Shown: piece by piece, positions 5,957 through 48,317 of the stretch
Layout of the letters: every line of letters starts with the position of its first letter
Numbering within the stretch: position 1 is the first letter of the stretch
DNA from: an uncultured Gammaproteobacteria bacterium
GTDB taxonomy: Bacteria > Patescibacteriota > Patescibacteriia > UBA10025 > JAHIVO01
DNA length: 64,000 nucleotides
Direction of reading: 5' to 3'
NCBI GenBank assembly: GCA_964592105.1
Contig: CAZQBL010000013.1
Span: 17,706-81,705, forward strand
Program-made: the position numbers and the translations under genes
Notes under the pieces: generated by a model
What the model was told of the DNA's origin: nothing
Database searches by the model: none
The model's input: the letters and a program-made list of their open reading frames with translations, nothing else

Positions 5957-5969
5957 ATGCTTTTATCTT

Positions 5970-6518: not shown

Positions 6519-6532
6519 ACTATAAACTAAAT

Positions 6533-6928: not shown

Positions 6929-6959
6929 AGTCTCTTGAAAAAAATTAGATAATTATTAT

Positions 6960-7145: not shown

Positions 7146-7155
7146 ATATTTTTAT

Positions 7156-7698: not shown

Positions 7699-7727
7699 AT
7701 ATTTCAATAACTGAGAATAATGTTTAA

Positions 7728-8036: not shown

Positions 8037-8059
8037 ATTAAAATTCCAACTTTTACATT

Positions 8060-8431: not shown

Positions 8432-8434
8432 ATT

Positions 8435-8710: not shown

Positions 8711-8711
8711 A

Positions 8712-8942
8712 TTATTTAACTTTGTCTTTATTAGTCTTGAGTGAATGTTGTTTGACCATTTTCTTTTCTTTTAAAACCGTCAAAATTCTGGCAATCGTTT
8801 TTTTCACCTCGCGAATTTCCCTCACATCTTTGTGTTGTTTAGATATTATTTTAAAACGTAAATCTCGAAAAATTTCCCTGCTGGAAGCCAGCAATTTTTG
8901 TAACTCACTCTCCTGTTTTAGTCTCAATTCTTTCAATTTCAT
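8712..8942 (-). CDS. rpmC: 50S ribosomal protein L29
   Basis: MKLKELRLKQESELQKLL L29 helical signature, operon position. Confidence 0.75.
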   Translation of the reverse strand: MKLKELRLKQESELQKLLASSREIFRDLRFKIISKQHKDVREIREVKKTIARILTVLKEKKMVKQHSLKTNKDKVK

Positions 8943-8944
8943 AA

Positions 8945-9355
8945 TTAGTCTCCCTTTTGAACAAACTTGGTTTTCACGGATAATTTGTGGGCCGCCAAGC
9001 GCATGGCTTCTTTGGCACCGCTTTCTGGCACACCATCCATTTCAAATAGTACGGTACCGCGCTTGACTGTGGCCACATAGTGGTCCACCGAGCCCTTGCC
9101 GCCGCCCATACGAACTTCCGAGCCGTGCAGGGTAACCGGTTTGTCGGGAAAAATCCTGATCCAGATTTTACCACCTTTTTGCACAAAACGGGTCATAGCT
9201 CGTCTGGCCGCTTCAATCTGACGCGAAGAAATCATCCCATTTTCCATGGATTTTAAACCATAGCTGCCAAAATCTATCATGGTTTTGGAAGTAGCGCTTC
9301 CCTTAATACTTCCTCGCTGCCATTTTCGATGTTTTACTTTTTTAGGTATTAACAT
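8945..9355 (-). CDS. rplP: 50S ribosomal protein L16
   Basis: [19 protein letters not shown] signature. Confidence 0.9.
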
Positions 9356-9370
9356 AAAAATAAAATCTAT

Positions 9371-10033
9371 TTATTTATTGATCGGGGACTCGTCAGCTTT
9401 CTTAAAAACTTCACCACGATTTATCCAAACCTTCACACCAATCACCCCGTAAGTTGTCTGCGCTCCGCCACGACAATAGTCAATATCGGCTCGTAATGTA
9501 TGCAAAGGTATGCTTCCCTGAGAAAACTTTTCCTGCCTGGCTATTTCAGAGCCGCCCAAACGGCCACCAATTATGATCTTAACACCCTTGGCCCCAGCCT
9601 GCATAACTTGTTCCATGGCTCTTTTGGCAATACGCCGGAAAGGCATACGTTTTTCCAACTGCTCAATTATCCCTTGGCACACAATCGCCGCATTCAAGTC
9701 TGGCTTGTTAATCTCGTGTATGTTTATATTAAGTTGAGTTTTTTTAGGCAAGAATTTACTTTTTATCTCTTTTTTCAATTCATCAGCTCCGGCTCCACCC
9801 CGGCCAATAACCACACCCGGCTTGGAAGTGTGCAAATTTATCGTTACCTTATCCCCGGATCTTTCCACTTCAATCAAAGCCACACCAGCTTCTTTAAGTT
9901 TTTTTGCCAGCCATTTACGGATTCGGACGTCCTGCTCTAAAAACTTAGCATAATCTTTTTTGGCAAACCATTTTGATTTCCAATTAGCCGTAGTGACTAT
10001 TCTAAATATTCGCGGATGCACTTTTTGTCCCAT
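9371..10033 (-). CDS. rpsC: 30S ribosomal protein S3
   Basis: MGQKVHPRIFR, KH domain. Confidence 0.9.
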   Translation of the reverse strand: MGQKVHPRIFRIVTTANWKSKWFAKKDYAKFLEQDVRIRKWLAKKLKEAGVALIEVERSGDKVTINLHTSKPGVVIGRGGAGADELKKEIKSKFLPKKTQLNINIHEINKPDLNAAIVCQGIIEQLEKRMPFRRIAKRAMEQVMQAGAKGVKIIIGGRLGGSEIARQEKFSQGSIPLHTLRADIDYCRGGAQTTYGVIGVKVWINRGEVFKKADESPINK

Positions 10034-10035
10034 AA

Positions 10036-10617
10036 CTATCTTTCTCCTAAGCGACGGGTAAATTTATCTTTAATATTTTTAAAATCTAAAAATGATTTCT
10101 TCTTCTGTTCTTCGGGTTTTGTCAAGATCTCGGTCTTACCTTTAGACTCATGCTTAATTTCTTTGAAATCAACCACTGGCCGGGCAGTTTCCTTTTCCTT
10201 TGTCGGCGTAGTATGGACTGACGACTTGGCTACTGATTTGACCGTCTTTATCTTGCCCTTCACTTTGGTCTTAGGTGGTGTAACTTTGAGCTCGTCTAAA
10301 ATAATAGTGATGTGCGAGGATCTTTTTAAAATCGGAGTGGCCCGTCCAAAGGCCCGAGGTCTCCAGCGCTTCAACTTTGGCCCTTCGTCAACCATTATCC
10401 TTTTTATAAAAAGATTATCTTTCTTTAATTTAAAATTGTTTTCTGCGTTAGCCACGGCAGAATTCAAAAGTTTCAGCATTGGCCTGGCCGAACCTTTGGA
10501 CAGGAACAACAACTGACTTTCAGCAGCCACCACTGTTTTAGATCTAATAAGATCAGCTACTAATCTGACTTTACGCGGGGCAATTCTTAAAAATCTCAAT
10601 TTGGCCTTAACTTCCAT
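10036..10617 (-). CDS. rplV: 50S ribosomal protein L22 with long Lys-rich C-terminal extension
   Basis: MEVKAKLRFLRIAPRKVRLVADLIR L22 N-terminus; 193 aa vs ~115 typical. Confidence 0.8.
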   Translation of the reverse strand: MEVKAKLRFLRIAPRKVRLVADLIRSKTVVAAESQLLFLSKGSARPMLKLLNSAVANAENNFKLKKDNLFIKRIMVDEGPKLKRWRPRAFGRATPILKRSSHITIILDELKVTPPKTKVKGKIKTVKSVAKSSVHTTPTKEKETARPVVDFKEIKHESKGKTEILTKPEEQKKKSFLDFKNIKDKFTRRLGER

Positions 10618-10632
10618 AGTTCAAAAAAATTT

Positions 10633-10995
10633 TTATTCGCTCTTAAGAGTCTTAGCGCCGGTCGTTGAGGCTTTCTCCTGAGCCGAAGCTAATTCTTTTT
10701 TCTGATTTTCAGCTGCTGCCATTTCAGCTTCGCGTTGCATACGACCACCATGTTTGACGAACTTGCGCGTTGGGGCAAATTCTCCCAGACGATGCCCAAC
10801 CATATTCTCCACAACATAAACCGAAATGTGATCTTTACCATTATGGACACCAAAGGTAAACCCGACCATTTCCGGCGTCACGACTGAATCTCGCGACCAA
10901 GTTTTAATAATTGTCTTGTCGCCAATTTTAAGCTTTGATACTTTCTTCAACAGCTTGGGATCAGTGAATGGACCTTTTTTTATACTCCTGGACAT
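10633..10995 (-). CDS. rpsS: 30S ribosomal protein S19 (C-terminal extension)
   Basis: [19 protein letters not shown] signature; 120 aa. Confidence 0.85.
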
Positions 10996-11036
10996 ATATT
11001 ATTATAAATTACTACTTTTAAAGTTAATTAGTTTGC

Positions 11037-11867
11037 CTAGATCCGTTTTTTAATAATAAATTTATCCGAATATTTACCTGTCTTCCTAGTTTTGACACCC
11101 AGCGCCGGCTTACCCCACGGGGTTTTCGGGTGTTTCATGCCGATCGGATTGTGACCCTCGCCACCGCCATGCGGATGATCAACCGGATTCATGGCTTTGC
11201 CGCGGACCGATGGTTTTATGCCCATCCACCGCTTTTTCCCGGCCTTGCCTAATCTAATATTAAAATGATCCGCATTGGAAACTTGACCAATAGTAGCACA
11301 ACAATCCTTGTGGAATAACCTAACTTCTCCTGAAGGCAATTTTATCTGGGCATAATCCCCCTCCAAGGCCTGAATAATAGCCCCAGCACCGGCGGAACGA
11401 ACCATTTGCGCCCCCGAGCCTGGCTGGATTTCCAAATCATATACCATTATACCTATTGGCATTTTAGACAGGGGCAGGCGGTTGCCAATTTTTATTTCTG
11501 CCCTTTCCAAAGAAGATAAAATTTTATCCCCAACTTTTAGGCCTTCTGGTGCGACAATGTAGCTTTTATCTCCATCAGAATACTGAATCAGCGCCAGATG
11601 GGCAGTTCGGTTAGGATCATACTCCAGAGCCATGACTGTAGCCGGATCATTGTAATGCCGGCGAACATTATCAATGATTCTGACAAAACGTTTGTGACCA
11701 CCGCCTCTATGTCTAACCGTAATTTTACCTTTGTTATTGCGGCCGGCTGGCCGTTTCTTTGAAACTAAAAGATTTTTCTCGGGTCGTTTCTTTGAAAGAT
11801 GCGAAGTGTCTATGACAGAAGCATGTCGGCGACCTGGAGTGGTGGGTTTGTAAGATTTTATCGACAT
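11037..11867 (-). CDS. rplB: 50S ribosomal protein L2
   Basis: 276 aa, GGGHKR and RNxxG motifs. Confidence 0.9.
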
Positions 11868-11880
11868 AAGCTTAATTTTT

Positions 11881-12387
11881 TTATAATCCTTCCTGAATAT
11901 CTATCTTTTCTCCTTGATTCAGGGTAATGATGGCCTTTTTCCAGCTTTTAGTGCGCCCTTCAGTGCGACCATATCTAATTTTTTTTCCGGAAAAATTCAT
12001 TATATTAACTTTAATGGGATCAACACCGTAAACTTTGCGTATGGCTTTGCGTACCTCCACTTTATTGGTTTCGGGAGCAACGGCAAAAACATACTGATTG
12101 GCCGAGCTTAAATAAGAACCTTTTTCGGTAATTAAAGGATGCGTCAGTACCTTGTAAGCATCACCGGTTTCTTCCTTTTTCTGTTTGGCTTTTTTGGACT
12201 TGACCTCGGCTTTTTTCGTAGTTTCCACCAGTTTGCCGTCAGGGGTCACTACCATCTGTCGTTTTGTCTCGGTTACCGTTTTTGGCTGTTCTTTTTTCTC
12301 GACCTTCGACAGCTTGGAAGTCGTCTCTTTTTTTTGTGGAGTTTTGGCCGAAGTTTCTTTTTTCTTAAAAACGTCTAATAGTCCCAT
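11881..12387 (-). CDS. rplW: 50S ribosomal protein L23 with ~75-aa Lys/Thr-rich N-terminal extension
   Basis: core [16 protein letters not shown]...; extension precedes. Confidence 0.75.
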
Positions 12388-12393
12388 AAAAAA

Positions 12394-13020
12394 TTACAAA
12401 TATGTTTGACTAATCACCTTTAAACTGTCCTGGGGGCATAAAATAAATTCGTGGGCCACTACTTCATAAACATTCAAACTATCGGCGGAAATTGATTTAG
12501 CGTACGGTAAATTCCTAACTGATTTAATAATCTTGTGATCAGTCTTAGGCAGGATCACAAGAATTGTTCCTTTCAAAGGTAATTTCGAAATTACATTTAA
12601 AAACGATTTAGTTTTTATGGCCGACAATTCCAGCTTATCCAAGACAACTAATTTTTTATTAATAGCCTTGTCGGCCAAAGCCATAAACAGGGCGAGTCTT
12701 TTGGCTTTTTTATTCATGCCCAAGGAAAAATTACGATTTTTTCTAGGACCAAACGTCACTCCACCACCTTTCCATATCGGTGAGCGGATGGAGCCATGTC
12801 TGGCTCGGCCAGTGCCTTTCTGACGCCACGGTTTTTTACCGCCGCCACGAACCTCAGCCCTAGTCTTAGTATGGGCCAAAACCAAGCGACTATTGGCCAG
12901 CTGCGTGCGAATCGCCTGCTGGACCAAAGTCGGCTTAACTTTAACGCCGAAAATTTTCGGTTCCAAAGTTAATTCACCAACTTCCTTGCCCATCATATTG
13001 TAAACTTTTGTCTTCTGCAT
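12394..13020 (-). CDS. rplD: 50S ribosomal protein L4
   Basis: RGGGKKPWRQKGTGRARHGS motif. Confidence 0.85.
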   Translation of the reverse strand: MQKTKVYNMMGKEVGELTLEPKIFGVKVKPTLVQQAIRTQLANSRLVLAHTKTRAEVRGGGKKPWRQKGTGRARHGSIRSPIWKGGGVTFGPRKNRNFSLGMNKKAKRLALFMALADKAINKKLVVLDKLELSAIKTKSFLNVISKLPLKGTILVILPKTDHKIIKSVRNLPYAKSISADSLNVYEVVAHEFILCPQDSLKVISQTYL

Positions 13021-13077
13021 AATTATTTACTTTTTACCTCTTCCTTACTCTCTTTCGGGGTCTTCGGCCTCACGACT

Positions 13078-13761
13078 TTATTTTATTTTTTCCTTCTGCT
13101 CCGGGCTAACCACGGTCGGTTCTGCCTCGGCTGAGGCCGCGACCATCTCGCCAGTTGTGCGGATCATTAAAAGTCCTCTATTGCTACCTGGCAGTGCGCC
13201 TTTGACATACATAAGGTTATTTTCCTTATCAATCTCCACTACTTCCAAATTATCAATAGTAACTCTTTGATTGCCCATATGGCCGGCCATACGGCGACCT
13301 TTTGGCACGCGCTGAGGGGCCGTGGCGCCGACAGAACCCGGCATCCGCAGTTGATCTTTGTGTCCGTGGGAAGCGGGTGATCCGCCGAAACCATGACGCC
13401 TGACCACACCCTGAAAGCCCTTACCTTTAGAGTAGCCGGTAACAGTCAGTTTGTCCCCGACCTGAAAATTTTCTACGGTTATCTTATCGCCACGTTTAAC
13501 AGTGGCCGGCTTATCTATTTTGACTTCTTTTAAAAATTTAAGTGGTACAAGCCCCTTGAGATGGCCCCGCACTGGTTGGCTTATTTTGCGGACTTTCTGG
13601 AAGCCCAGCTGAATGGCATCATAACCATCCTTAGCCTTGGTTTTAACCTGAGTAACGAAACATGGCCCGGCCATAACAACAGTTACAGGCAAGACGCGTC
13701 CGTCTTCTTTGAACCTTTGAGTCATTCCAATTTTTGTAGCCAAGATAAATTTCATAGACAA
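13078..13761 (-). CDS. rplC: 50S ribosomal protein L3
   Basis: ATKIGMTQ..., GKGFQGVVRRHGF motif. Confidence 0.9.
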   Translation of the reverse strand: MSMKFILATKIGMTQRFKEDGRVLPVTVVMAGPCFVTQVKTKAKDGYDAIQLGFQKVRKISQPVRGHLKGLVPLKFLKEVKIDKPATVKRGDKITVENFQVGDKLTVTGYSKGKGFQGVVRRHGFGGSPASHGHKDQLRMPGSVGATAPQRVPKGRRMAGHMGNQRVTIDNLEVVEIDKENNLMYVKGALPGSNRGLLMIRTTGEMVAASAEAEPTVVSPEQKEKIK

Positions 13762-14100
13762 AATAAAAATCCGGTGTATGAATTAACGCCAGAGTTCATT
13801 AAATTCCGGCGCCAAACTACCGGTCTTTTAGTATACTACTGGCAAATCGTTATCTAAGGATTACCCTATCTATAAACCTAAGAATTTTCATCCTTAGAAC
13901 CTATCTACCTATTAAATTTTTAAAAATATATATACACCACTCACTCCACTAATCCATATATCGCGCATGCCCCGCGAAACTTAACGGGCGAAGCGGGGAA
14001 TCCAACGAATAATCACGAATAATCTTAAAAAAATCTGAATGAATTATTTTGTGGGTTTTTATTGATATTAGAAAGTGATAATAAATTCGTGATTATATTA

Positions 14101-14571
14101 CTACATTTTAATTTCCACGTCAACCCCTGAAGGCAAATTTAGACTCATCATGGCATCTATAGTTTTTGGGGTGGGATTTATGACTTCTATCAGACGCTTG
14201 TGAATGCGCATTTCATATTGCTCGCGAGCATTCTTATGGACAAAAGTCGAGCGATTCACCGTGTACTTCTTTTTTTCCGTGGGCAATGGAATTGGTCCCT
14301 TGGTTTGCGCGCCGGTACGTTTAGCCGTATCCAAGATTGTCCGCGTCGACTGATCAATTATTTTATGATCATAAGCGCGAATTCTGATACGAATGCGCTG
14401 CTGTGTTTCTTCGTTACTGTTGGCTGGCGCAACGGCAGCGGTCGGTTTGTTGTCCGCCAAGTCTTCGATTTTCTTATTTTCCTGTTTTAGCATGTCAGTA
14501 TTAATGTGAGAATTAATCCCAAGCCCGCACCGCCAAGCCTGATCAGCTGAAAGCAAAGAGTCAAGGTGCAA
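14101..14571 (-). CDS. rpsJ: 30S ribosomal protein S10 (start uncertain; alternative Met at 14493)
   Basis: [17 protein letters not shown]...[36 protein letters not shown]. Confidence 0.85.
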
Positions 14572-14613
14572 GGCAACTTACTAACTAAAAAATGTTTTTT
14601 AAAGAAGAAAAAA

Positions 14614-15798
14614 CTATTTAATGATCTTGGAAACCACGCCCGCACCGACAGTACGTCCACCCTCGCGGATGGCAAAATTCTGCTGTTCTTCCAAAGCAAT
14701 TGGTACGATCAATTTAATTTTAAGTTTGACACTGTCCCCCGGCATGACCATTTCGGTTTTTTCCGGTAATTCAACCTCTCCGGTAACATCAGTAGTTCGA
14801 ATATAAAATTGGGGTTTATAGCCTTTGAAAAACGGGGTGTGCCGGCCGCCTTCCTCTTTAGTCAAAACATAAACCTCTCCCTCAAATTCAGTATGAGGCG
14901 TTACCGACCCAGGTTTAGCGATAACCTGGCCCCTCTCCACATCATCTTTCTTGATGCCTCTAAGCAGAATGCCAGCATTGTCCCCGGCTCGACCTTCATC
15001 CAAAGATTTGTTGAACATTTCAATGCCGGTCACCACGGTTTTAGTTGTCGGCTTGAGACCAACAATTTCAACTTCGTCATTTAATTTAACTACCCCTCGA
15101 TCAATCTTACCGGTAACCACGGTACCGCGACCTTCAATGGAAAAGATGTCTTCGATAGGCATAAGAAACGGCTTATCGACATCGCGCTTCGGCTCAGGAA
15201 TAAATTCATCCAGTGCTTTAGCCAATTCCATAATCGCTTCTTTGTGCTTTTCATCGCCTTCCAAAGCTTTCAAAGCGGAACCTTTGATGATCGGGGTGGT
15301 ATCACCTGGATAATTGTATTTCTTCAATAAATCACGAACTTCAACTTCAACTAGATCAATCAGTTCTTTATCATCAACCATATCAACTTTATTCAAAAAG
15401 ACAATGATGTTCGGCACGCCAACTTGGTGAGCCAAAAGAATATGTTCACGGGTCTGAGGCATGGGTCCGTCGGCAGCAGAAACCACCAAAATAGCTCCAT
15501 CCATCTGGGCGGCGCCGGTAATCATGTTTTTGACATAATCAGCATGACCCGGACAATCAATATGAGCATAATGTCTTTTTTCAGTTTCATATTCCACGTG
15601 AGCAGTAGCAATGGTAATACCACGCTCTTTTTCTTCGGGAGCATTGTCAATTTGATCAACGGATTTTTCCTGAGCATTAAAACCCTTTTCTTTTAAAACT
15701 TTAAGTATAGCCGCAGTTAACGTGGTCTTTCCGTGGTCAACATGGCCAATAGTACCAACGTTGACGTGCGGTTTTGTTCTTTCGAATTTAGCTGCCAT
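14614..15798 (-). CDS. tuf: elongation factor Tu
   Basis: [22 protein letters not shown] motifs; 394 aa. Confidence 0.95.
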
Positions 15799-16043
15799 AG
15801 TGATGTATTTCCTTAAAATTTAAACTTTTTAAATGAATTATATTAAATTGCACTATCGATTATAGCAATGTTCGCCCATTTAAGCAAGATGACCCCATAA
15901 TCCAATATAATTAATCCTTAAAAACCATTTAAAAAAACGAGTATTTTAGCGAAAATATGGTTTTTAACGTTTTTTCCCAAGTTCGTGGAAAATAACCGAT
16001 AAAAACTTATCCCCAAGAGGTGTGGATATCGACTGACTGCGAT

Positions 16044-18137
16044 TTATCTTCCCTTTGGCGCACCATTTGTTTTCGCCCCGATGATCTGTTCCGTGACATT
16101 GCGCGGCACGATCTGATAGTTAGAAAATTCCATGGAATACGAAGCTCGGCCTTGTGACATGGAGCGGAGCTGAGTGGCATAGCCGAACATCTCTGCCAAC
16201 GGAACTGTGGCATCGATTATCTTCATCATACCGCGTTCGCGCATCTCATTGATGCTAGCGCGCTTTGAATTTAAATCACCAATAATATCCCCCATGAATT
16301 TTTCCGGGGTGACTACTTCAACCTTCATAATCGGCTCCAAAAGTACCAGGCCCGCGCGTCGTGATGCTTCTTGAAGGGCTATTGAACCGGCAATTTTAAA
16401 AGCCGCTTCTGACGAATCAACTTCATGATAACTACCATCAAGCAGTGTCGCCTTAATATCAACCAACGGGTAATGAGCCAAAACACCTCGCTCCATGGCT
16501 TCTTTGATGCCTTTTTCAATCGGAGCAATATATTCCCTGGGTATGTTGCCACCCTTGACTTCATCAACGAATTCAAAACCTTCACCGCGATTCTTAGGCT
16601 CCACCCGAATTATACAATGACCGTATTGACCGCGACCGCCGGACTGACGAATGTATTTACCTTCGGCCTCGGCAATTTTGGTAATAGTCTCTTTATAAGC
16701 AACCTGGGGCCGACCAACATTGGCTTCAACTTTAAACTCTCGCCTCATACGGTCGACAATAATATCCAAATGCAACTCGCCCATGCCGGAAATGATTGTC
16801 TGATTAATTTCCTCGTCGGATTTAATGCGAAAAGTCGGGTCTTCCTCAGCCAGTTTAGCCAGGGCCAAGCCCATTTTTTCCTGATCTGCCTTGGTCTTGG
16901 GCTCGATGGCCACGGAAATGACCGGCTCGGGAAAAGTAATTGATTCTAAAACAATAGGGTTGTCAGGATCACACAAGGTATTACCAGTAGTCGTATTTTT
17001 CAAACCAACAGCAGCAGCAATCTCCCCAGCAAAAACCTCCTTAACTTCCTCGCGATGGTTTGCGTGCATACGCACAATGCGACCCACGCGTTCTTTGAAA
17101 TCCTTCGTGGTATTCAGAACATAGGAACCAGCATCAATTTTTCCTGAATAAACTCGGAAAAAAGTCAACGTACCTACGTAGGGGTCCGTAGCCACTTTGA
17201 AAGCCAGAGCGGAAAATGGCTGATTATCGTCTGCCAAACGCTCAATTTCCCCCTTTGTCTTGGGATCAATTCCTTTAACCGGCGGTATGTCCAAAGGTGA
17301 AGGCAAATATTCAACCACCGCGTCCAACAAAAACTGAATTCCCTTATTTTTCAACGCCGAACCCACTAAGATAGGCATAATCTTATTTTCAATTGTAGCC
17401 CGTCTCAGCACGCGCCGCAACTCTTCATTGGAAATATCCTGATTGTCCAGATATTTTTGCAAAAGCGCGTCGTCCTGTTCAGCTATTTTTTCTACCATGG
17501 CGTGGCGGTATTCCTCAACTTTATCCTTCATATCCTCCGGAATGGTCGTTTCTTCAAATTCCTTACCTAAATCATCTTTATAAATAACTGCTTTTCGCTC
17601 GAATAAATCAATAATTCCTTTAAAATTTACTTCGGCGCCAATAGGTAATTGAATTGGTACGGCGTTGGGGGTAAGACGCTCTTTGATGGCTGTCACATCA
17701 GCATAAAAATCAGCTCCTGTTCTGTCCATTTTATTTATAAAACCCATCAGCGGAACCTTAAACTTTTCCGCCTGATGGAAAACAGTCTCTGACTGTGGTT
17801 CCACACCGGCCACGCCGTCAAAAACAATAAAACCGCCGTCCAGCACACGCAAACTACGCTGCACCTCAACGGTAAAATCAATATGCCCTGGAGTATCGAT
17901 CAAATTCAGACGATGACCCTTCCAGAAACAGGTCGTGGCCGCGGAAGTAATGGTAATACCGCGTTCTTTTTCTTGTTCCATCCAGTCCATTTCCGCCGCA
18001 CCCTCATGAACCTCTCCAATCTTGTGCTTTTTTCCGGTATAAAAAAGTATCCGCTCGGAGACGGTAGTCTTACCGGCGTCAATATGAGCTATCACGCCGA
18101 TATTTCTGGTCTTTTCTAAACTGTATTCACGAGGCAT
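16044..18137 (-). CDS. fusA: elongation factor G
   Basis: [17 protein letters not shown]; 697 aa. Confidence 0.95.
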
Positions 18138-40576: not shown

Positions 40577-40653
40577 CGGGGTATGGCGCAGTTGGCTAGC
40601 GCGCATGCATGGGGTGCATGAGGCCGTGGGTTCAAGTCCCACTACCCCGACCA
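40577..40653 (+). tRNA. tRNA-Pro (anticodon GGG), CCA encoded
   Basis: Cloverleaf folded by hand: acceptor CGGGGTA/TACCCCG, D-stem GCGC/GCGC, anticodon stem CATGC/GCATG with loop ATGGGGT, T-arm GTGGG-TTCAAGT-CCCAC. Confidence 0.85.
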
Positions 40654-40697
40654 AGTTAGACTTTTTTGAAATTCAGAGGCGATTGGTTGCTCGCTCG

Positions 40698-40761
40698 CCG
40701 CGCCTTTGGCGCGGAAAGCAGACGGGCAAAAATTCCTTCCCCCCAACCCCCTCTTTCCGCC
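40698..40761. repeat. left GC-rich flank repeat: hairpin CCGCGCC-TTT-GGCGCGG plus motif GGGCAAAAATTCCTTCC
   Basis: Imperfect inverted copy of 48005-48098 (17/17 core match, ~75% over ~65 nt). Confidence 0.5.
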
Positions 40762-40921
40762 ACGTCCTCGCTTTGAATGCCGTCGGAATTTGTATTTTGT
40801 TTCGCAAAATGCGTCGCAAGAAAAAGAAGTATTGCCCTTGCCCCAGCCCACCCGTGCGCGGGCGACAACAAGAAACTTCCTATTTGTTGACTAAACAAAT
40901 TAAATTGTGTACTATAATGTT

Positions 40922-40972
40922 AGTATTAGTCATCTAATTGTAGATAAATTATTGTATTTTAATACTAATACT
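40922..40972. promoter_or_regulatory. 9-bp inverted repeat AGTATTAGT...ACTAATACT upstream of XRE regulator gene
   Basis: Seen directly, ends 12 bp before the XRE start codon; candidate autoregulatory operator (C-box-like). Confidence 0.35.
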
Positions 40973-40983: not shown

Positions 40984-41196
40984 ATGTCAATGAAAAAAAC
41001 AACAATAGCAAAGAATATAAAGAAGTTGCGAAAGCAACGGGGTTTGTCGCAGGACAAATTGTCCAAATTGGCTAATATTTCCCATAATACGATCATAAAA
41101 ATTGAGTCCGGCGCCATACAAAGCCCGACAATGGACACGGCAAGCAAAATCGCCAAAGCCCTTGGCGTTTCGCTTGATGATTTAGTCAACAAATAA
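40984..41196 (+). CDS. XRE-family helix-turn-helix transcriptional regulator (possible R-M controller protein)
   Basis: IKKLRKQRGLSQDKLSKLANISHNTIIKIESG HTH_3 motif; 70 aa; 4 nt before hsdR. Confidence 0.8.
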   Translation: MSMKKTTIAKNIKKLRKQRGLSQDKLSKLANISHNTIIKIESGAIQSPTMDTASKIAKALGVSLDDLVNK

Positions 41197-41200
41197 AATT

Positions 41201-43705
41201 ATGCAAAAAGAAGCCAAGGCCAGAATAAAAATCAATGAGTTGCTTCAAAATGCCGGCTGGAGATTTTTTGATGATGAAAACGGAAAAGCAAATATTGTTT
41301 TGGAAAACAACGCCAAAATCACAAAGCAAGCCATTGATGAATTTGGCAACGATTTTGAAAAAACCAAAAAAGGATTTATTGATTTTTTATTGCTTGATGA
41401 CAAGGGATTTCCACTGGTAGTTTTAGAGGCAAAATCGGAAGACAAAGACCCGCTTGACGGCAAAGAGCAGGCCCGCCGTTATGCCCAATCTCAAAACGCT
41501 CGCTTTATTATACTTTCAAACGGCAATCTTCATTACTTTTGGGATTTGGAACGAGGCAATCCGGCAATTATTACTACTTTCCCAACTTATGAATCTTTGA
41601 AGCATTTGGAAACTTTCAAACCGAGCTTTTCAATTCTTTCAGAGGAAAAAGTTGAAAGCGATTATATTGTTCAAACGCAAAACCCGACTTATCAAAAAGA
41701 TCCTCGATGGATTGATGAAACGCAAAGAGCAGATTTTATCAAAGAGCAAGATTTGAAATTTTTGCGCCCCTATCAATTAGCTGCAGTTCATGCTTTGCAA
41801 AATTCGGCGAAGAAAGGAAATGACCGCTATCTTTTTGAAATGGCGACCGGAACAGGCAAGACACTTGTTTCAGCCGGTGTGATTAAACTTTTTTTGAAAA
41901 CAGGAAACGCTAAAAGAATTTTGTTTTTGGTTGACCGGTTAGAATTGGAAGACCAAGCGTACAAAAATTTCAAAAAAATCCTGCATAACGATTTTAACAG
42001 TGTGATTTACAAAGAAAATCGCGATGACTGGCGAAAGGCGGAAATTGTTGTTTCAACTGTGCAAAGTTTATCGTTTGACAATAAATACAAAAAACTTTTT
42101 TCGCCCACTGATTTTGACTTGATAATTTCTGATGAAGCCCATCGCTCCATTGGCGGAAACAGCCGCGCTGTTTTTGAGTATTTTGTCGGCTATAAATTAG
42201 GGCTTACGGCAACACCGAAAGATTATCTCAAAAACATTGACCCGCAAAAAATCAGCGAAAAAGACCCGCGAGCGTGGGAACGTCGCCAGCTTTTAGACAC
42301 TTACACAACTTTTGGCTGTCCTTCCGGCGAGCCGACTTTCCGTTATAGTTTGCTGGACGGCGTAAAAGACGGCTATCTTGTCAATCCGGTTGTCGCAGAC
42401 GCGAGAACTGAAATCACCACCGAGCTTTTATCCGAAAAAGGTTATGCCTTGATGGTTGAAAATGAGGAAGGCATAGAGGAAGAACAAACCTTTTTTCAAA
42501 AAGATTTCGAACGAAAGTTTTTTTCAGAAAAAACCAATCAGATTTTCTGCAAAACATTTTTGGAAAACGCGCTTAAAGACCCAATCAGCGACGAAATCGG
42601 CAAGAGCATTGTTTTTTGCGTCAACCAAAAACATGCTTCAAAAGTTACCCAAATCTTAAACCAGTTTGCTGATCAACTTTGGCCCGGCAAATATAATTCC
42701 GATTTTGCCGTGCAAGTTACCTCCAATATCAAAGACGCACAGCAATTTACTATCAATTTCGCAAACAACAACTTAAACGGCCAAACAAAATGGCTAGCGG
42801 GCTATAAATCCAGCAAAACCAGAGTTTGCGTAACTGTCGGCATGATGACGACCGGCTACGACTGCCAGGATATTTTGAATCTTTGTTTGATGCGTCCGAT
42901 TTTTTCACCGACTGATTTTATCCAAATTAAAGGACGAGGCACAAGAAAATATACATTTAAATACAAAGATGCTGATAGTGAAGAAATAATAGCAGAAAAA
43001 GAAACTTTTAAACTTTTTGATTTCTTTGCTAATTGTGAATATTTTGAAGAAAAATATAATTATGACCAAGTTTTGCAATTACCGATTAAAACTGGAACAC
43101 GAACGGAGGGCGGCGAAGGTGTTGATATTGACGAGGTGAGCATTTTTAATCCTGATCCGCTCAAAACTTTTTCGGAAAAAGCCGTCGGCCTTGCCGGCAT
43201 GAAAGTTGACTGGAAGCTGTTTGAAAAGTTTGAACAAACTGTAAAAAATGATCCAATAGTTAAGCAAAAATACGAACAAGGAGATATTCAAGGCGTTGAA
43301 GAATATGTCAAAGGGGAAATTTTTGAAAAGCCTGAGGATTACTTCAATCTGGAAAAGCTGCGCAAAGCAGTTAAGGCCGACCGACGCATCACACTTAGAG
43401 AATTTATTGAAAAAATTTTTGGCGGTATAAAGAAATTTAAAACCAAAGACGAGCTTTTGGAAGAAGAATTTGAAAAGTTTGTTGCGATTTACAAGCCAGA
43501 TAATAAATATGCACTGCTTATCAAAAATTATCTCAAGGCGTATATCACTGATCCGGAAATCCGCGACATTGTGGAAACCAAAGAATACAGCCGTTTTGCC
43601 ACTAATCCAAAAGTTACGATGAAAGACTTTCGCGACCTAAACGGCTGGCGAGAAGTTGTGCCGGAATACGTCAAAGATTATGTGTCGCTTAATACTTTTA
43701 TGTAA
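41201..43705 (+). CDS. hsdR: type I restriction enzyme R subunit (HsdR; PD-(D/E)xK N-domain + SF2 helicase + EcoEI_R_C-like tail)
   Basis: N-terminus NELLQNAGW, DFLLLDD...VVLEAK nuclease motif; ATGTGKT (motif I), DEAH; 834 aa. Confidence 0.85.
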   Translation: MQKEAKARIKINELLQNAGWRFFDDENGKANIVLENNAKITKQAIDEFGNDFEKTKKGFIDFLLLDDKGFPLVVLEAKSEDKDPLDGKEQARRYAQSQNARFIILSNGNLHYFWDLERGNPAIITTFPTYESLKHLETFKPSFSILSEEKVESDYIVQTQNPTYQKDPRWIDETQRADFIKEQDLKFLRPYQLAAVHALQNSAKKGNDRYLFEMATGTGKTLVSAGVIKLFLKTGNAKRILFLVDRLELEDQAYKNFKKILHNDFNSVIYKENRDDWRKAEIVVSTVQSLSFDNKYKKLFSPTDFDLIISDEAHRSIGGNSRAVFEYFVGYKLGLTATPKDYLKNIDPQKISEKDPRAWERRQLLDTYTTFGCPSGEPTFRYSLLDGVKDGYLVNPVVADARTEITTELLSEKGYALMVENEEGIEEEQTFFQKDFERKFFSEKTNQIFCKTFLENALKDPISDEIGKSIVFCVNQKHASKVTQILNQFADQLWPGKYNSDFAVQVTSNIKDAQQFTINFANNNLNGQTKWLAGYKSSKTRVCVTVGMMTTGYDCQDILNLCLMRPIFSPTDFIQIKGRGTRKYTFKYKDADSEEIIAEKETFKLFDFFANCEYFEEKYNYDQVLQLPIKTGTRTEGGEGVDIDEVSIFNPDPLKTFSEKAVGLAGMKVDWKLFEKFEQTVKNDPIVKQKYEQGDIQGVEEYVKGEIFEKPEDYFNLEKLRKAVKADRRITLREFIEKIFGGIKKFKTKDELLEEEFEKFVAIYKPDNKYALLIKNYLKAYITDPEIRDIVETKEYSRFATNPKVTMKDFRDLNGWREVVPEYVKDYVSLNTFM

Positions 43706-43736: not shown

Positions 43737-46181
43737 ATGCTCACTCAAGAAACCAAAAGAAAAATTGACTCCGCCCGCGATATTTTGGTCGGCAAAGTGC
43801 CGGACCCCAAAGCGCAAGTTGAGCAAATCACCACCGCTTTAATTTACAAGTTTATGGACGATATGGACAAAGAAGCGCAGGAGCTTGGCGGCAAAGCGCG
43901 CTTTTTTACCAACGGCTACGAAAAATACGCGTGGACAAAATTGATGGACGCCAAACTTGGCGGACACGAGCGTCTTGATTTATATCTTGAAGCGATTACT
44001 TTTTTATCTCGCAATCCGCATATCCCCCAGCTTTTCCGCGACATTTTCAAAGACGCATTTTTGCCGTATCGCGACTCCGAAACTCTGAATTTATTTTTGA
44101 AAGAAATTAACGGATTTACTTATGACCATAGCGAAGATTTAGGCGATGCTTTTGAATATCTGCTTTCAATTCTTGGCTCACAAGGCGACGCTGGACAATT
44201 CCGCACGCCACGCCATATTATTGATTTTATTGTGGCGGCGGTTGCTCCGAAAAAAGACGAAACAATATGCGACCCCGCTTGCGGAACGGCTGGATTTTTA
44301 ATTTCTGCCTATAAGCATATTCTGAAAACAAATAAAGAAAAACCCTTGACTCCGGACGAGCGGAAAAAATTGATGGATCATTTTGTCGGCTATGATATTT
44401 CGCCTGATATGGTGCGGCTTTCCAAAGTCAATTTATATCTGCACGGTTTTCCAAACCCAACCATTTTTGAATACGATACACTCACGAGCGAAGAAAAATG
44501 GGAAGACAATTTTGACGTGATGCTGGCCAATCCGCCGTTCATGTCGCCCAAAGGCGGCATCCGCCCGCATAAGAGGTTTTCGGTGCAAGCCAATCGCGCG
44601 GAAGTCCTGTTTGTTGATTATATTTTAGAACATCTAAAACCCAACGGCCGAGCCGGCATTATCGTGCCGGAAGGGATAATTTTTCAATCTGCCAATGCTT
44701 ACAAACAATTGCGTAAAAACTTGATTGAAGACGGCCTTTTTGCCGTTGTCTCTCTGCCGCCGGGCGTCTTTCAGCCGTATTCAGGAGTAAAGACTAGCGT
44801 TTTGCTTTTTGATAATGCTTTAGCTAAGAAAACAAAAGACCTTTTATTTTTGAAAATTAAAAACGACGGCTATGACCTTGGCGCGCAAAGGCGGGAAATA
44901 GATAAAAATGATTTGCCGTTAGCGTTAGAAATAATCAAAAAATACAAAAACGCATTAAAAGAAAGCAATGAATTTAAATTGAACGAGAAGCAGGCAAAAA
45001 TCGCTCATCTTGTTGCCAAAGAAAAAATTGCTCAAAGTGGTGATTATAATCTTTCTGGAGATAGATACATAGAAACTGTGAATTTCGTCAATCAAAAATG
45101 GCCATTGGTGGAGTTGCAAAAAGTTACTAAGATTGATTGGGGTAACACTGAACTAACGAAGAAATCTTATATTAAGAATGGTGAATTTCTCGGTGTGAGC
45201 GCTACCGGCGCTGATGGTCGAATTAATCATTTTGAGCACGAAGTTGGTGTTACTGTTCTGTCTGCAATCGGCGCAAATTGTGGTAAGGTATTTTATCCGA
45301 CCGAAAAATTTACTGCTATAAAAAATACAATCACTATTACGCCTGATAGTAAGAAATTGAAGCCAAAATTTCTGTTCTACATAATGAAAAGTAATACCTT
45401 GCCTAAACGAGGTGGCGGTCAACCTTTTATGTCAAAAGGTGATGTTGAAAAGTATAAAATCCCCCTTCCGCCGCTTGAAGTTCAAAAAGAAATCGTTGAG
45501 CAAATTGAAGTAAAACAAAAAGCCATTGAAGCCGCCAAAGCGGTAATTGAAAATCTTGAGAGAGAGAGACGCTATTTTGGCCAGTCACTTAGGAAATTAG
45601 AAGATGTTGAGTGGGTAGAGTTAGAAAAAGTTGCTAACTTTTTTGAAGATGGTAATTGGATTGAGAGCAAGGATCAAGCAGACAACGGTATAAGACTTAT
45701 TCAAACTGGAAATATCGGCATAGGCGAGTATTTAGATAAAGCAGAAAAATCGCGCTTCGTTTCCGAAAATACATTCAAGAAATTAAAGTGTACAGAAATT
45801 TTTGAAGGTGATATTTTAATTTCGCGATTACCCGATCCAGTTGGTCGTGCTTGTTTGCTACCAAAATTAGAAACAAGAGCGATCACAGCAGTTGATTGTA
45901 CTATTGTTAGATTTGACAATAAAAAAGTTATTCCGAAATTCTTCCTATTATATTCAATGACTGGTGATTATTTTAGTAGTCTTGCTCAATACTTAACCGG
46001 TGCAAGTAGGCAAAGGATAAGTCGTCTTAATTTAGGAAAGGTTAAAATCCCACTCCCACAGCTTGAAGTCCAAAAACAGCTGGTTGCAGATATGGAAGAG
46101 CAGGAAAAAATCATTGAGGTGAATAAAAAATTGATAAAGATATTGGAGCAAAAAATTTCTGATGTTTTAAGAGAAATATAG
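43737..46181 (+). CDS. fused type I R-M methyltransferase-specificity protein (HsdM N6-adenine MTase + two HsdS target-recognition domains)
   Basis: GQFRTPRHII, DPACGTAGFL (motif I), NPPF (motif IV); C-terminal half has two TRDs each followed by conserved coiled-coil spacer (PLPPLEVQKEIV... / IPLPQLEVQKQLV...). Confidence 0.85.
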   Translation: MLTQETKRKIDSARDILVGKVPDPKAQVEQITTALIYKFMDDMDKEAQELGGKARFFTNGYEKYAWTKLMDAKLGGHERLDLYLEAITFLSRNPHIPQLFRDIFKDAFLPYRDSETLNLFLKEINGFTYDHSEDLGDAFEYLLSILGSQGDAGQFRTPRHIIDFIVAAVAPKKDETICDPACGTAGFLISAYKHILKTNKEKPLTPDERKKLMDHFVGYDISPDMVRLSKVNLYLHGFPNPTIFEYDTLTSEEKWEDNFDVMLANPPFMSPKGGIRPHKRFSVQANRAEVLFVDYILEHLKPNGRAGIIVPEGIIFQSANAYKQLRKNLIEDGLFAVVSLPPGVFQPYSGVKTSVLLFDNALAKKTKDLLFLKIKNDGYDLGAQRREIDKNDLPLALEIIKKYKNALKESNEFKLNEKQAKIAHLVAKEKIAQSGDYNLSGDRYIETVNFVNQKWPLVELQKVTKIDWGNTELTKKSYIKNGEFLGVSATGADGRINHFEHEVGVTVLSAIGANCGKVFYPTEKFTAIKNTITITPDSKKLKPKFLFYIMKSNTLPKRGGGQPFMSKGDVEKYKIPLPPLEVQKEIVEQIEVKQKAIEAAKAVIENLERERRYFGQSLRKLEDVEWVELEKVANFFEDGNWIESKDQADNGIRLIQTGNIGIGEYLDKAEKSRFVSENTFKKLKCTEIFEGDILISRLPDPVGRACLLPKLETRAITAVDCTIVRFDNKKVIPKFFLLYSMTGDYFSSLAQYLTGASRQRISRLNLGKVKIPLPQLEVQKQLVADMEEQEKIIEVNKKLIKILEQKISDVLREI

Positions 46182-46183
46182 TT

Positions 46184-47914
46184 ATGTTTATCAAATCCCT
46201 TACAATCAAAAATTTTCGCTGTTTCGGAAAAGGAACGGACGAAAAAGGCACAACAATAAACTTAAATAATGGCTTAACCGCTTTTATCGGCAGAAACGGA
46301 AGCGGCAAAACTGCTATTTTGGAAGCGTTGAATTTTTTAATCGGCTCGGATTATTTGCCGACAAAAATTAATGAGAAAGATTTTAACAGTGACGCAAAAG
46401 ATATAAAAGACGAGATTGTAATTGAGGGCGAGACGGAAAAGCCGTTTTTTGCAACACTTGATGTTCGCTCAAACACCAATCAGCTTGAAACAATTATTAT
46501 TCCCTGCAATAAAATCAAGCTCACGATTAAGCGGCGAGAAAAACCGGAAAAGGTTTTAGACGATCCTTTTATCATCAATAAGTATGTTTTGCCGATTGTT
46601 GGCGATATTGATGAGAGTATTTTTGAAGAAGATGAAAAAGCGCGCAAAGCCTCTAGGATTGACCAAATCAAAGAAGGTTATACCGTTTTTTACAAACTTA
46701 AAGACGGGCAAGAGCGTAATGCCAAAGTAATAAGTTATCAGCTTACTTACAATCCAAATCGCCTGACAAAATGTCCAAAATCTTACTATCTCTCAAAGGA
46801 CAGAGACGATGATGTTGCCGGCAATTATTCTCTTATCGCGAAAATTTTAACCGACCTGCATTGGAAGTATAAGAAAAAGCAGGCAGGCGGCGAAAATACG
46901 ATTTCCTGCGAATATAACACGCTTGCCGGATCGTTACGGGGCATTGTGGACGAAAAGAGCATATTGATTAACAGAATAAACGAAAAAGTAAAAGCGATTT
47001 GTTGCGATGACAAAAATTTTCAGATTGATTTTATTGATATTGACCAACCTTACAAATCAGCTTTTGTCGCAAAAAAGGAAGGCAAAAAATTGCTTTTGCC
47101 TGACAATCTTGGCTCTGGTTTTAACATCTTGATTGCTTACGCTCTTTTTGCGTATGTCGCCGACCAAGAGAAAATCCCTATTGTTTTGATTATTGACGAG
47201 CCGGAACTGCATATGCATAGCGACTGGCAAAAGAAAATGTATGAGGTTTTTACCAAACAAACCGATCTGCAATTCGTTTATTCCACCCAATCTGAAAATT
47301 TTATTTCGTTGAAAAACTGGAAACAAATCCGTTCAATTTCAGATTTTCAAGTTTTTCCAAAAAAGGAGATTTTACAAGAGCAGATCACCGCAACAGATGG
47401 ACAAAATGGAACAAGGGCGGATTATCTTGATGATTACGCAACAAAAAATTTGCATATCAGTACAATATTGCGCGAAAATCTTGAGTTATTTTTTGCCAAA
47501 AAATGCGTTTTGGTCGAAGGCCCGTCGGAAAAATATGGCTTGCCGAAACTTTTGAAACTTTCCAGCTGTGATGTTGATAATTTTTCTGTTTCAATAATTC
47601 CGGCGTGGGGCAAAACGAAAATCAAAAATTATCAAATGATTTGTAAAGTTTTTGGCATAGATTACTTTACGATTTATGACAATGATAAAGCGGAAGACGA
47701 TGAACCGACAAACGAAAACACAGCGATTGAAAATAACGCCGAAAATGGAAAGAAGACAAGATTTTCAACAAGTTTTGAGGCAAAACTGGGAGTAACCGGG
47801 GAGAGTAAATTTCAAAAGTTGGTGAAAAAGATTGATGAGATAACCGATACAAACTCTTTGGATCAAGAAATTAAAACTTGTTTGAGCAACCTAAAAACCT
47901 TTATTGAAAGCTAA
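46184..47914 (+). CDS. OLD-family nuclease (N-terminal ABC/AAA_15-type ATPase + C-terminal Toprim)
   Basis: Walker A GRNGSGKTAILEAL; Toprim VLVEGPSEKYGLPKLL ... YDNDKAED; start 3 nt after hsdMS stop. Confidence 0.8.
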   Translation: MFIKSLTIKNFRCFGKGTDEKGTTINLNNGLTAFIGRNGSGKTAILEALNFLIGSDYLPTKINEKDFNSDAKDIKDEIVIEGETEKPFFATLDVRSNTNQLETIIIPCNKIKLTIKRREKPEKVLDDPFIINKYVLPIVGDIDESIFEEDEKARKASRIDQIKEGYTVFYKLKDGQERNAKVISYQLTYNPNRLTKCPKSYYLSKDRDDDVAGNYSLIAKILTDLHWKYKKKQAGGENTISCEYNTLAGSLRGIVDEKSILINRINEKVKAICCDDKNFQIDFIDIDQPYKSAFVAKKEGKKLLLPDNLGSGFNILIAYALFAYVADQEKIPIVLIIDEPELHMHSDWQKKMYEVFTKQTDLQFVYSTQSENFISLKNWKQIRSISDFQVFPKKEILQEQITATDGQNGTRADYLDDYATKNLHISTILRENLELFFAKKCVLVEGPSEKYGLPKLLKLSSCDVDNFSVSIIPAWGKTKIKNYQMICKVFGIDYFTIYDNDKAEDDEPTNENTAIENNAENGKKTRFSTSFEAKLGVTGESKFQKLVKKIDEITDTNSLDQEIKTCLSNLKTFIES

Positions 47915-48004
47915 ATTTTGATAGAATGATAGCTAGCTGAACCCACCCACTGTCCAATTTAAAGTCCCGCCGCCGTCCGAAAAAACGCTTTCGGGTTTCC
48001 AGCA

Positions 48005-48098
48005 GGCGGGCAAAAAGGAAGGGGGTCTGGAGGAAGGAATTTTTGCCCGCCCGCCGTTTCTGGGTGGGGGTGGGTGTGCGCCGCCGAAGGCGACGCAC
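48005..48098. repeat. right GC-rich flank repeat incl. 11-bp-stem hairpin GCGGGCAAAAA...TTTTTGCCCGC (loop with GGAAGG x2) and hairpin GTGCGCCGCCGAAGGCGACGCAC
   Basis: Inverted imperfect copy of left flank 40698-40761. Confidence 0.5.
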
Positions 48099-48264
48099 AA
48101 GTCAGTCAAAGTTTTGCTCAAAATAGGTTCGCACCTCGTCCAATAATTGCGACCAAGTTAAACATTGCGAAATTGAAAAACTTTACTTATTTTATTATAT
48201 TATAGAAATATTACAAAATTTTACCAATACGAAACCCGCTTATAATTTAGCGGGTTTTAAAAAA

Positions 48265-48300
48265 TTATAAAAAATACCGCCCGTAAAATTAACAGGCGGT
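48265..48300 (-). terminator. rho-independent terminator downstream of 48318..48503 gene
   Basis: minus-strand CCGCC-loop-GGCGG followed by TATTTTTT. Confidence 0.45.
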
Positions 48301-48317
48301 AAATTAGCTGAAATGAA

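Follow-up and report, generated by a model that had tools for sequence, protein, structure and literature searches.

An OLD-family nuclease gene in an apparently exchangeable position at the 3' end of a type I restriction-modification operon

Results

The last gene of the operon encodes an OLD-family nuclease

We analysed 64,000 nucleotides (nt), here called the window, of an assembly that is deposited as an uncultured Gammaproteobacteria bacterium and placed by GTDB in the Patescibacteriota (GenBank GCA_964592105.1, contig CAZQBL010000013.1, positions 17,706 to 81,705, forward strand). The subject is an open reading frame (ORF) of 576 amino acids (aa) that starts with ATG, runs from 46184 to 47914 on the + strand, and forms the last gene of a four-gene type I restriction-modification (R-M) operon. 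It encodes an OLD-family nuclease, and in related operons the same position is taken by other genes. Its features are as follows (Ts OLD is the Thermus scotoductus protein).

46184..47914, + strand: OLD-family nuclease, Class 1 type, 576 aa (Pfam, PADLOC, PDB search, AlphaFold2, Foldseek)
46184..47356, + strand: ABC-type ATPase region, aa 1-391 (Pfam AAA_15, conserved columns, mapping to Ts OLD)
46289-46312, + strand: Walker A, G36xNGSGKT43, invariant or nearly so in the homologue alignment
47183-47218, + strand: Walker B, D338-E339, with H343/H345 (invariant columns)
47288-47290, + strand: Gln369 at the H-loop position, in the context STQS (alignment to Ts OLD)
47489..47779, + strand: Toprim nuclease domain (aa 436-527) and metal-B segment (PF20469, Ts OLD profile alignment)

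An earlier reading of the sequence, the original prediction, had recognized an N-terminal OLD ABC-type ATPase from the motif GRNGSGKTAILEAL (aa 35-48, with the Walker A stretch G36-T43 within it) and an OLD-type Toprim core from VLVEGPSEKYG (aa 442-452) and DND (aa 499-501). Both domains were recovered by the profile searches and PADLOC run that it had proposed as checks. Pfam AAA_15 matches aa 1-374 at 1.6e-21 over its whole 374-position model, AAA_21 matches at 5e-20, and OLD-like_TOPRIM (PF20469) matches aa 436-501 at 6.2e-18 over positions 1-67 of 67, all with scores that exceed the curated Pfam cut-offs. In PADLOC the GajA models scored 1.6e-32 and the Old model 3.1e-29. The ABC signature, LGSG at aa 309-312, is invariant or nearly so. 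Among 91 homologues E445 and D499 are invariant and D501 is conserved in at least 90%. The gene is under strong purifying selection (dN/dS 0.04-0.09 against eight homologues), and the protein is predicted to have the full catalytic equipment of Class 1 OLD proteins, with all six metal ligands present.

Assignment to Class 1

The closest solved relative in a PDB sequence search is Ts OLD, 6P74 (1.5e-19 for the protein alone, 1.7e-44 for a profile of the 91-sequence family); GajA, PtuA and AriA stand behind it at 1e-17 or worse. An AlphaFold2 model based on the 91 homologues has a mean local confidence (pLDDT) of 84.8 and a predicted template-modelling score (pTM) of 0.82. Its top Foldseek match is again 6P74 (E 3.4e-28, template-modelling scores 0.61/0.67), followed by GajA at about 1e-17 and then by the retron-Eco8 OLD and PtuA. 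Identity to Ts OLD in the structural alignment is only 18%. Catalytic residues were mapped from the Ts OLD definitions (PMC7049728) through HMMER alignments, and the residues so mapped are invariant or at least 90% conserved across the 91 homologues:

Walker A: K42 here, K34 in Ts OLD
Walker B: D338 here (E339 next to it), E276 in Ts OLD
D-loop: H345 here, H283 in Ts OLD
Metal A: E445, D499 and D501 here; E377, D431 and D433 in Ts OLD
Metal B: E449, S530 and E532 here; D381, S478 and E480 in Ts OLD

Structural criteria that separate Class 1 from Class 2 were taken from PMC7049728. In the model the Toprim strand 469-473, helix 477-489 and strand 493-499 are consecutive, the third Toprim helix leads to the DxD strand without a further helix in between, and the C-terminal tail consists of three short helices only. 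The predicted topology matches Class 1, with neither the Toprim insert helix nor the C-terminal helical domain of Class 2. Like the Class 1 proteins Ts OLD (6P74), P2 Old, V. cholerae OLD and E. coli YbjD, the protein is a single polypeptide of ABC ATPase and Toprim with a helical insertion in the ATPase (here a three-helix bundle at aa 217-273 in the secondary structure of the model), a metal A site of E and DxD and a metal B site of D/E and S-x-E, and the Class 2 Toprim insert and helicase partner are both missing. By sequence and modelled fold it most probably belongs with Class 1. It is unlike the described Class 1 proteins at two residues, Gln369 in place of the H-loop histidine and a glycine at the position of Ts R487, and in its setting. 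The literature describes Class 1 genes as isolated (PMC10568477, PMC13261556), whereas this gene lies 2 nt after hsdMS in a four-gene operon, and relatives in its clade keep the linkage to R-M genes.

The original prediction had spoken of an OLD/Gabija/PARIS-type nuclease; the family name holds, and the comparison with Gabija and PARIS gives way to one with Ts OLD and P2 Old. Gabija GajA (Class 2) has the same two-domain architecture, gives the top PADLOC E-values and is the second-best fold match, but its HMM matches to the query split into two stretches, and the query model has no extra Toprim helix. The called genes in the interval that reaches about 10 kb upstream and about 3.8 kb downstream include no UvrD-family or GajB-like gene, and the region 47915-48317 is non-coding; Gabija was rejected for want of a GajB/UvrD-like neighbour. 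A retron OLD (Class 3) was rejected because neither a reverse transcriptase (no RVT domain in the called-gene neighbourhood) nor msr/msd RNA (no retron RNA by Rfam) was found. PARIS (Class 4) also combines an OLD-type ABC ATPase with a Toprim nuclease, AriA and AriB, but it is normally made of two proteins with a DUF4435-type Toprim and lies outside R-M operons. The AriA match to the query is confined to the ATPase, and the 8 Pfam families that the OLD protein matches at E<=0.01 do not include DUF4435. PARIS was rejected because the query is a single fused polypeptide with a PF20469 Toprim. MADS and the OLD-ABC modules of BREX are likewise methylation-based systems with an AAA_15/21 ATPase and a Toprim-type nuclease (PMC12065111, PMC12839542), and PADLOC mad2, mad3 and mad5 models match HsdMS and OLD. 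MADS was rejected on its NCBIfam scores (MAD2 89 bits against a cut-off of 720, MAD3 22.9 against 420, MAD5 33 against 400); the cassette consists of four genes only, with no mad1, mad4, mad6-8 or BREX genes.

A conserved junction between hsdMS and old

The genes upstream of old, and the junction itself, are:

40984..41196, + strand: XRE-family helix-turn-helix (HTH) protein, 70 aa, first gene of the operon (Pfam HTH_3 1.2e-19)
41201..43705, + strand: HsdR, PD-(D/E)XK N-domain and superfamily 2 (SF2) helicase (Pfam ResIII 1e-40, HSDR_N)
43737..46181, + strand: HsdM-HsdS fusion, 814 aa (N6_Mtase 9.7e-55, Methylase_S twice)
46157..46186, + strand: conserved junction of hsdS tail, TAG, TT and ATG (multi-locus comparison)

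Pfam, PADLOC and NCBIfam agree on the annotation of the four genes, and the gaps in the order XRE-hsdR-hsdMS-old are 4, 31 and 2 nt. The hsdMS stop TAG occupies 46179-46181 and is followed by TT and the ATG at 46184, which begins 3 nt past the last stop base as the original prediction had it, that is, after a gap of 2 nt. To place this junction among its relatives, 46 metagenomic loci (numbered L004 and so on) and several contigs with homologues were fetched and compared with the window proteins, and the distance to the upstream gene was measured in 40 loci. A fused hsdMS lies directly upstream of OLD in 23 loci, 18 of which have the 2-nt gap in a near-invariant junction, GAAGTTTTAAGTGAAATATAG-TT-ATG. 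L004 and L049 have the 2-nt junction behind a short hsdS remnant only, which brings the total to 20 of 40; the gap is at most 6 nt in 27 of 40. Genes for XRE and HsdR precede hsdMS wherever the contig extends far enough. An R-M gene or remnant lies immediately upstream in about 30 of the 33 informative loci (OLD at least 62% identical), and OLD is always at the 3' end when it stands behind an R-M gene. Recurrence of the 2-nt junction in about 20 related loci agrees with the tight coupling to hsdMS that had been proposed, and we infer translational coupling and co-transcription of old with the hsd genes.

The position after hsdMS is variable

HsdR has a much larger family than OLD: 8000 candidates reach E<=1e-30, and clusters with at least 76% identity number more than 120. 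Four HsdR homologues with 75-90% identity and the same hsdR-hsdMS architecture were examined, and all four carry a gene other than OLD after hsdMS. The occupants are a 760-781-aa AAA_13 protein (L088, L090), a Shedu SduA nuclease (L091-94), and small ORFs with a Cas4-like PD-(D/E)XK nuclease (L095-97). The AAA_13 proteins score 1e-165 to 1e-184 with PADLOC PDC-S06; with the PrrC model they reach about 1e-11 (9e-12). In L090 the junction is identical to that of the window (GAAATATAG-TT-ATG-TTT) and the AAA_13 gene comes next, which suggests that the start codon itself is the exchange point. In L088 the AAA_13 start overlaps the hsdMS stop (ATGA).

The position after hsdMS is thus a plug-in slot for alternative nucleases, and the original claim that R-M and OLD are hard-wired fails on two counts: the slot holds AAA_13, SduA or Cas4-like genes in these HsdR relatives, and OLD is found elsewhere at the end of type III and other R-M operons or by itself. 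Locus L090 also has a RhuM-family gene between hsdR and hsdMS (9508-10536; PADLOC PDC-S05, 2e-137), which may make the interval between these two genes another variable position of this R-M operon family.

Restriction-linked ORFs are known from other type I loci: PrrC of the E. coli prr locus, RloC, and the rlo genes of Campylobacter. PrrC is kept latent by binding to the R-M enzyme. By analogy, the slot described here may be the same phenomenon as the restriction-linked ORFs PrrC, RloC and RloB. PrrC and RloC are like the present arrangement in that a type I R-M operon contains an ABC-type NTPase together with a nuclease, either fused to it or encoded as its partner, and a PrrC-like AAA_13 protein sits in the identical slot, with the identical junction, in relatives of this R-M family. 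PrrC differs in its ATPase (AAA_13 rather than AAA_15/21) and in having an anticodon-nuclease domain rather than an OLD Toprim. For RloB, Toprim membership and a link to type I R-M systems have been described (PMC12065111).

OLD behind other R-M types, and OLD alone

Relatives of the window OLD were found at the end of several kinds of operon, and without R-M genes:

L066, L073/74: OLD 69-72% identical, ending an XRE gene, type III Mod and Res
L012, L071: OLD 62-71% identical, ending a canonical hsdM-hsdS-hsdR; in L012 also YgjP, and then GmrSD
L063: OLD 76% identical, ending a PLD-SNF2 helicase and an Eco57I-type methylase
L075, L065: OLD 69-75% identical, ending an N6_N4 methylase, or Vsr
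L004 9515-11734 (also L005-7, L049, L050): OLD-only derivative, OLD 92% identical, small tyrosine recombinase adjoining

A remnant of the hsdS tail precedes the OLD ATG even in type III-, canonical type I- and methylase-linked loci. Because such remnants precede OLD in other R-M contexts, the hsdMS-old junction is probably ancestral, and OLD would have moved together with the hsdS tail. L076/77, where OLD follows a nitroreductase gene, is the only housekeeping context found.

In the Thermodesulfovibrio loci (L004-7, L049/50) OLD is intact and the R-M genes (XRE, hsdR and most of hsdMS) are deleted. The order there is tmRNA, left GC-rich element, promoter-like region, short ORF, junction and OLD, and the short ORF is fused to the last ~43 hsdS codons, which are followed by TAG-TT-ATG. 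This structure suggests that an L004-type locus is a deletion derivative of the Patescibacteria-type cassette in another phylum. The Thermodesulfovibrio OLD has a dN/dS of 0.16 against its closest relative, with no nonsynonymous excess. Because OLD is intact in loci without R-M, OLD alone appears to be tolerated by the cell. Identities of OLD and of its R-M partners are uncoupled: an OLD 80% identical stands with an HsdR of 46%, and an OLD of 72% with an HsdR of 89%.

The L012 island (252-16908, = L078) has the order MerR-like HTH, hsdM, hsdS, hsdR, YgjP-like hydrolase, OLD (62% identical) and GmrSD (type IV), followed by a serine recombinase. Loci L091-94 share this recombinase module, and their cargo is AbiEii, hsdR, hsdMS and Shedu.

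Family size and distribution

A HMMER scan of 1.84 billion cluster representatives found 3446 relatives of the OLD protein at E<=1e-3 and 42 at E<=1e-30, with about five 50%-identity clusters in the query clade. A word-indexed search found 172 relatives, many of them 80-94% identical and named Patescibacteria, Magasanikbacteria or Komeilibacteria. A 92%-identical copy sits in a Thermodesulfovibrio metagenome-assembled genome, which suggests that the gene moves between phyla. Plasmid and phage collections held nothing closer than about 26% identity, and a contig scan with the family alignment, which follows generic ATPase patterns, gave distant relatives only (22-46% identity) and was uninformative on context. 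Schiltz et al. noted that some old genes lie in species-specific operons that include defence genes; a literature search found no description of OLD with hsdR/hsdM, of an R-M-terminal OLD clade or of an exchangeable slot.

The R-M partner genes

The components of a type I R-M system are all present: an HsdR with nuclease and SF2 motor, an HsdM N6-adenine methyltransferase, and an HsdS with two target-recognition domains. HsdR matches PADLOC REase_I at 2e-56 and the NCBIfam EcoAI-family model at 1.4e-71, which is under the equivalog cut-off, and carries the nuclease motif D...EAK at aa 60-80. HsdMS matches PADLOC MTase_I at 1.7e-99, as well as Specificity_I. An 88-nt direct repeat within hsdMS (45442-45529 and 46030-46117, 70% identity) matches the two conserved regions of which one stands after each target-recognition domain. 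Identity from locus to locus is 27-82% in the S part of HsdMS, 71-94% in HsdR and the M part, and about 70-94% when OLD is included. Some loci have a half-size S part (629 aa, L008), and L088 and L093 have a separate extra hsdS. Because the S part varies while M and R stay high, the comparison indicates that specificity domains are probably being actively shuffled.

The XRE protein matches the PADLOC Control_protein model at 1.2e-10, and homologues with 44-69% identity head related type I and type III cassettes. Two features precede its gene:

40887-40915, + strand: promoter-like site TTGACT-17-TACTAT (consensus scan)
40922-40930 and 40964-40972, + strand: AGTATTAGT / ACTAATACT, an exact 9-bp inverted repeat whose arms stand 33 nt apart (direct reading)

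Situated downstream of the promoter-like site and upstream of the XRE start codon, the repeat is a candidate XRE operator; the XRE protein is a candidate R-M controller (C) protein. The original prediction had placed the operon under an XRE controller. XRE is the first gene of the operon, as this implies, and the control is an interpretation of the gene order, a weak promoter-like match and the 9-bp repeat.

Cassette ends and tRNA sites

The cassette is bounded by a pair of GC-rich elements and adjoins a tRNA gene:

40577..40653, + strand: tRNA-Pro(GGG), directly left of the cassette (ARAGORN; Rfam tRNA 63.4 bits)
40676..40883, + strand: left GC-rich element, a decayed copy (inverted-repeat core 40718-40752)
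47935..48153, no strand assigned: right GC-rich element (conservation downstream of OLD)

The left core, 40718-40752, is an inverted repeat of 48020-48054 (35 nt, 86% complementary) and is present in two copies only in the whole window; an inner conserved block of the left element lies at about 40818-40883. The right element holds a hairpin with a 15-bp stem (arms 48002-48016 and 48040-48054, GCAGGCGGGCAAAAA / TTTTTGCCCGCC(C/T)GC) and a 23-nt loop that is purine-rich on the + strand. In the window and at least 10 other loci (67-92%), OLD is followed at 30-120 nt by a GC-rich element of this kind, which also stands downstream of the AAA_13 gene in L088 (14278-14371). In L061 and L081 inverted copies of 336 nt, 95-98% identical, flank the cassettes (L061 79-413 and 7458-7786); L059 has a 54-nt upstream inverted copy, and the type III and OLD island of L066 has the element at both ends (5-53 and 13159-13207). 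Partial copies occur in L059, L004, L046 and L066. The same element closes cassettes with OLD, AAA_13 or type III R-M cargo.

Rfam has no family for the element at gathering or permissive thresholds, and its fold is not significantly better than that of shuffled sequences (z = -1.4), and on these two grounds it was not called a structured RNA. An assembly artefact is an unlikely source of the 336-nt repeats of L061, as the left arm recurs in the independent sample L081, where it carries a further 1.9 kb of upstream flank, and shorter copies of the element occur in many loci. No recombinase or transposase was found inside the inverted-repeat-bounded islands examined (L066, L061 flank). The element may be a recombination site, one of a pair of transcriptional insulators, or both.

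Other cassettes also adjoin tRNA or tmRNA genes: tRNA-Ala in L046 (4103-4178), tmRNA in L004 (9164-9514) and, in L008, tRNA clusters beside the cassette at 5118-5299 and 12064-12255. In L044 the homologous tRNA-Pro(GGG) at 7178-7254 (- strand) adjoins the OLD end and not the XRE end, and this opposite orientation suggests inversion between the flanking repeats or insertion either way round at one target. The tRNA-Pro(GGG) of the window is a probable insertion landmark, and the whole, beside this gene, appears to be a small mobile cassette of defence genes.

Discussion

The two-layer defence suggested by the original prediction is a reasonable interpretation of R-M genes with a co-localized OLD effector. 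In the cassette as we picture it, the order would be GC-rich inverted element, promoter, XRE, hsdR, hsdMS, effector and GC-rich inverted element. Transcription would start at the promoter-like site, and XRE may control it through the 9-bp repeat. Ribosomes that finish hsdMS would re-initiate at the OLD ATG, and OLD would be made whenever the restriction enzyme is made. The ABC ATPase would regulate the two-metal Toprim nuclease, and OLD would serve as a second line when restriction fails: activated during infection, it would cut nucleic acid, by DNA nicking or tRNA cleavage, and phage growth would stop. We infer the anti-phage activity of OLD, and we consider it fairly probable that the protein is a co-expressed, autonomous second-layer effector in a variable slot.

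A more specific proposal is that phage interference with restriction activates OLD. We put it forward tentatively, with the balance of probability somewhat against it. A trigger tied to the failure of restriction is suggested by three observations: the clade occurs almost exclusively with several kinds of ATP-dependent R-M, the slot is shared with PrrC-like proteins, and P2 Old, PARIS and BREX back-up modules behave alike. P2 Old is activated by inhibition of RecBC(D) and then cuts tRNA (PMC12445682, PMC13261556). PARIS, the conceptual model for a restriction back-up, senses the anti-restriction protein Ocr and cleaves tRNA (PMC10802454), and OLD-ABC/Toprim modules have been reported as BREX back-ups (PMC12839542). 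The pairs PrrC/EcoprrI, PARIS/Ocr and P2 Old/RecBCD-Gam are plausible precedents by analogy. The arrangement resembles PrrC/RloC/Rlo, MADS, and BREX with OLD-ABC back-ups, and is a member of none of them.

Several observations weigh against this picture. OLD and its R-M partners do not co-diverge, OLD persists in loci without R-M, and the slot also holds Shedu and Cas4-like nucleases, which are not known guards; these three facts fit simple co-localization as well as they fit a guard. Many of the loci behind our counts are metagenomic contigs and possibly redundant. The Shine-Dalgarno-like AAGAGA that stands 9 nt before the OLD ATG is weak, and promoter and terminator scans gave site numbers at chance level in the region, so that operon boundaries are unproven by such scans. 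The active sites also depart from those of studied relatives. The position of the H-loop histidine, H332 in P2 Old, where it is essential, and H310 in Ts OLD (PMC7049728, residue list for Ts OLD), is Gln369 here. Glutamine occupies it throughout the query clade (at least 47% identity) and histidine in the sister clade (about 30% identity) and in the more distant relatives examined, except P0114 and P0259, which have glutamine; Gln369 is probably a derived character of the query clade. Because glutamine replaces the H-loop histidine, ATP turnover may be slow or absent. One could speculate that the nuclease is gated by the binding of ATP and not by its fast hydrolysis; in GajA and YbjD, activity is reported to be modulated by nucleotide binding. 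The basic position R487 of Ts OLD (K550 of P2 Old) aligns to Gly539, and K542, which aligns to Ts K492, is a candidate replacement for R487.

A simpler account is that an independent Class 1 OLD shares cassette and promoter with the R-M genes without functional interplay, the tight junction being the compact operon packing of small genomes. OLD is intact without R-M, stands alone after the nitroreductase gene in L076/77, has four unrelated kinds of R-M partner and shows no correlation with them in identity; unrelated nucleases fill the slot, and Vc OLD and YbjD act alone (PMC12392090, PMC13261556). Yet an R-M gene directly precedes OLD in nearly every member of the clade, with OLD at the 3' end every time, which exceeds generic clustering in defence islands, and the slot is shared with PrrC-like proteins, members of a group whose archetype needs its R-M partner. 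Both points are no more than suggestive. We judge a purely passive association less likely than not, though it is a serious competitor.

Two other roles seem very improbable. OLD might join the type I complex as an accessory subunit, an exonuclease that finishes the DNA in place of RecBCD-type degradation. The 5'-3' exonuclease and nicking activities of Ts OLD and P2 Old in vitro (PMC7049728, PMC10568477) would suit such a part, and translational coupling would favour stoichiometric co-production; but HsdR keeps its nuclease motif, and therefore no nuclease is missing, OLD occurs with unrelated R-M types without co-divergence and persists where R-M is lost, and most members of this R-M family are without OLD. 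As little credence can be given to an addiction or stabilization module, in which OLD would be a toxin that penalizes cassette loss, or to a non-defence function in the chromosome or cell cycle. A cassette without its own recombinase must persist somehow, some OLD genes are conditionally essential, or toxic when truncated (PMC8627662), and the archaeal OLD-family ATPase Cran1 is reported to have a cell-cycle role (PMC12796447). Against these stand the tolerance of OLD alone, the want of a conserved antitoxin-like partner, and a context that is consistently one of defence (R-M, GmrSD, AbiEii, zeta toxin, Shedu).

There is nothing unusual in the identification of the gene, which is secure; the interest lies in the conserved slot architecture and in the activation hypothesis. 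Reviews define Class 1 OLDs as isolated genes and ask what activates them (PMC10568477). Class 1 is the least understood OLD class, and the R-M-terminal clade offers a testable hypothesis of activation, that restriction has been subverted, for which the four-gene cassette is a compact test system. In its boldest form, which we regard as doubtful, the OLD clade would be a portable restriction guard, the exchangeable last gene of recombinase-less, inverted-repeat-bounded, tRNA-targeting cassettes; it would join any ATP-dependent R-M system, of type I, type III or another kind, and cleave tRNA or DNA when a phage disables restriction, and its glutamine H-loop would act as a slow switch or sensor. 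If that were true, the trigger logic that is still missing for bacterial Class 1 OLDs would be in hand, and R-M back-up effectors would be seen to have a plug-in slot architecture of their own. At a defined point the R-M cassettes of Patescibacteria-type genomes appear to exchange second-layer effectors, and this point could be searched for new ones.

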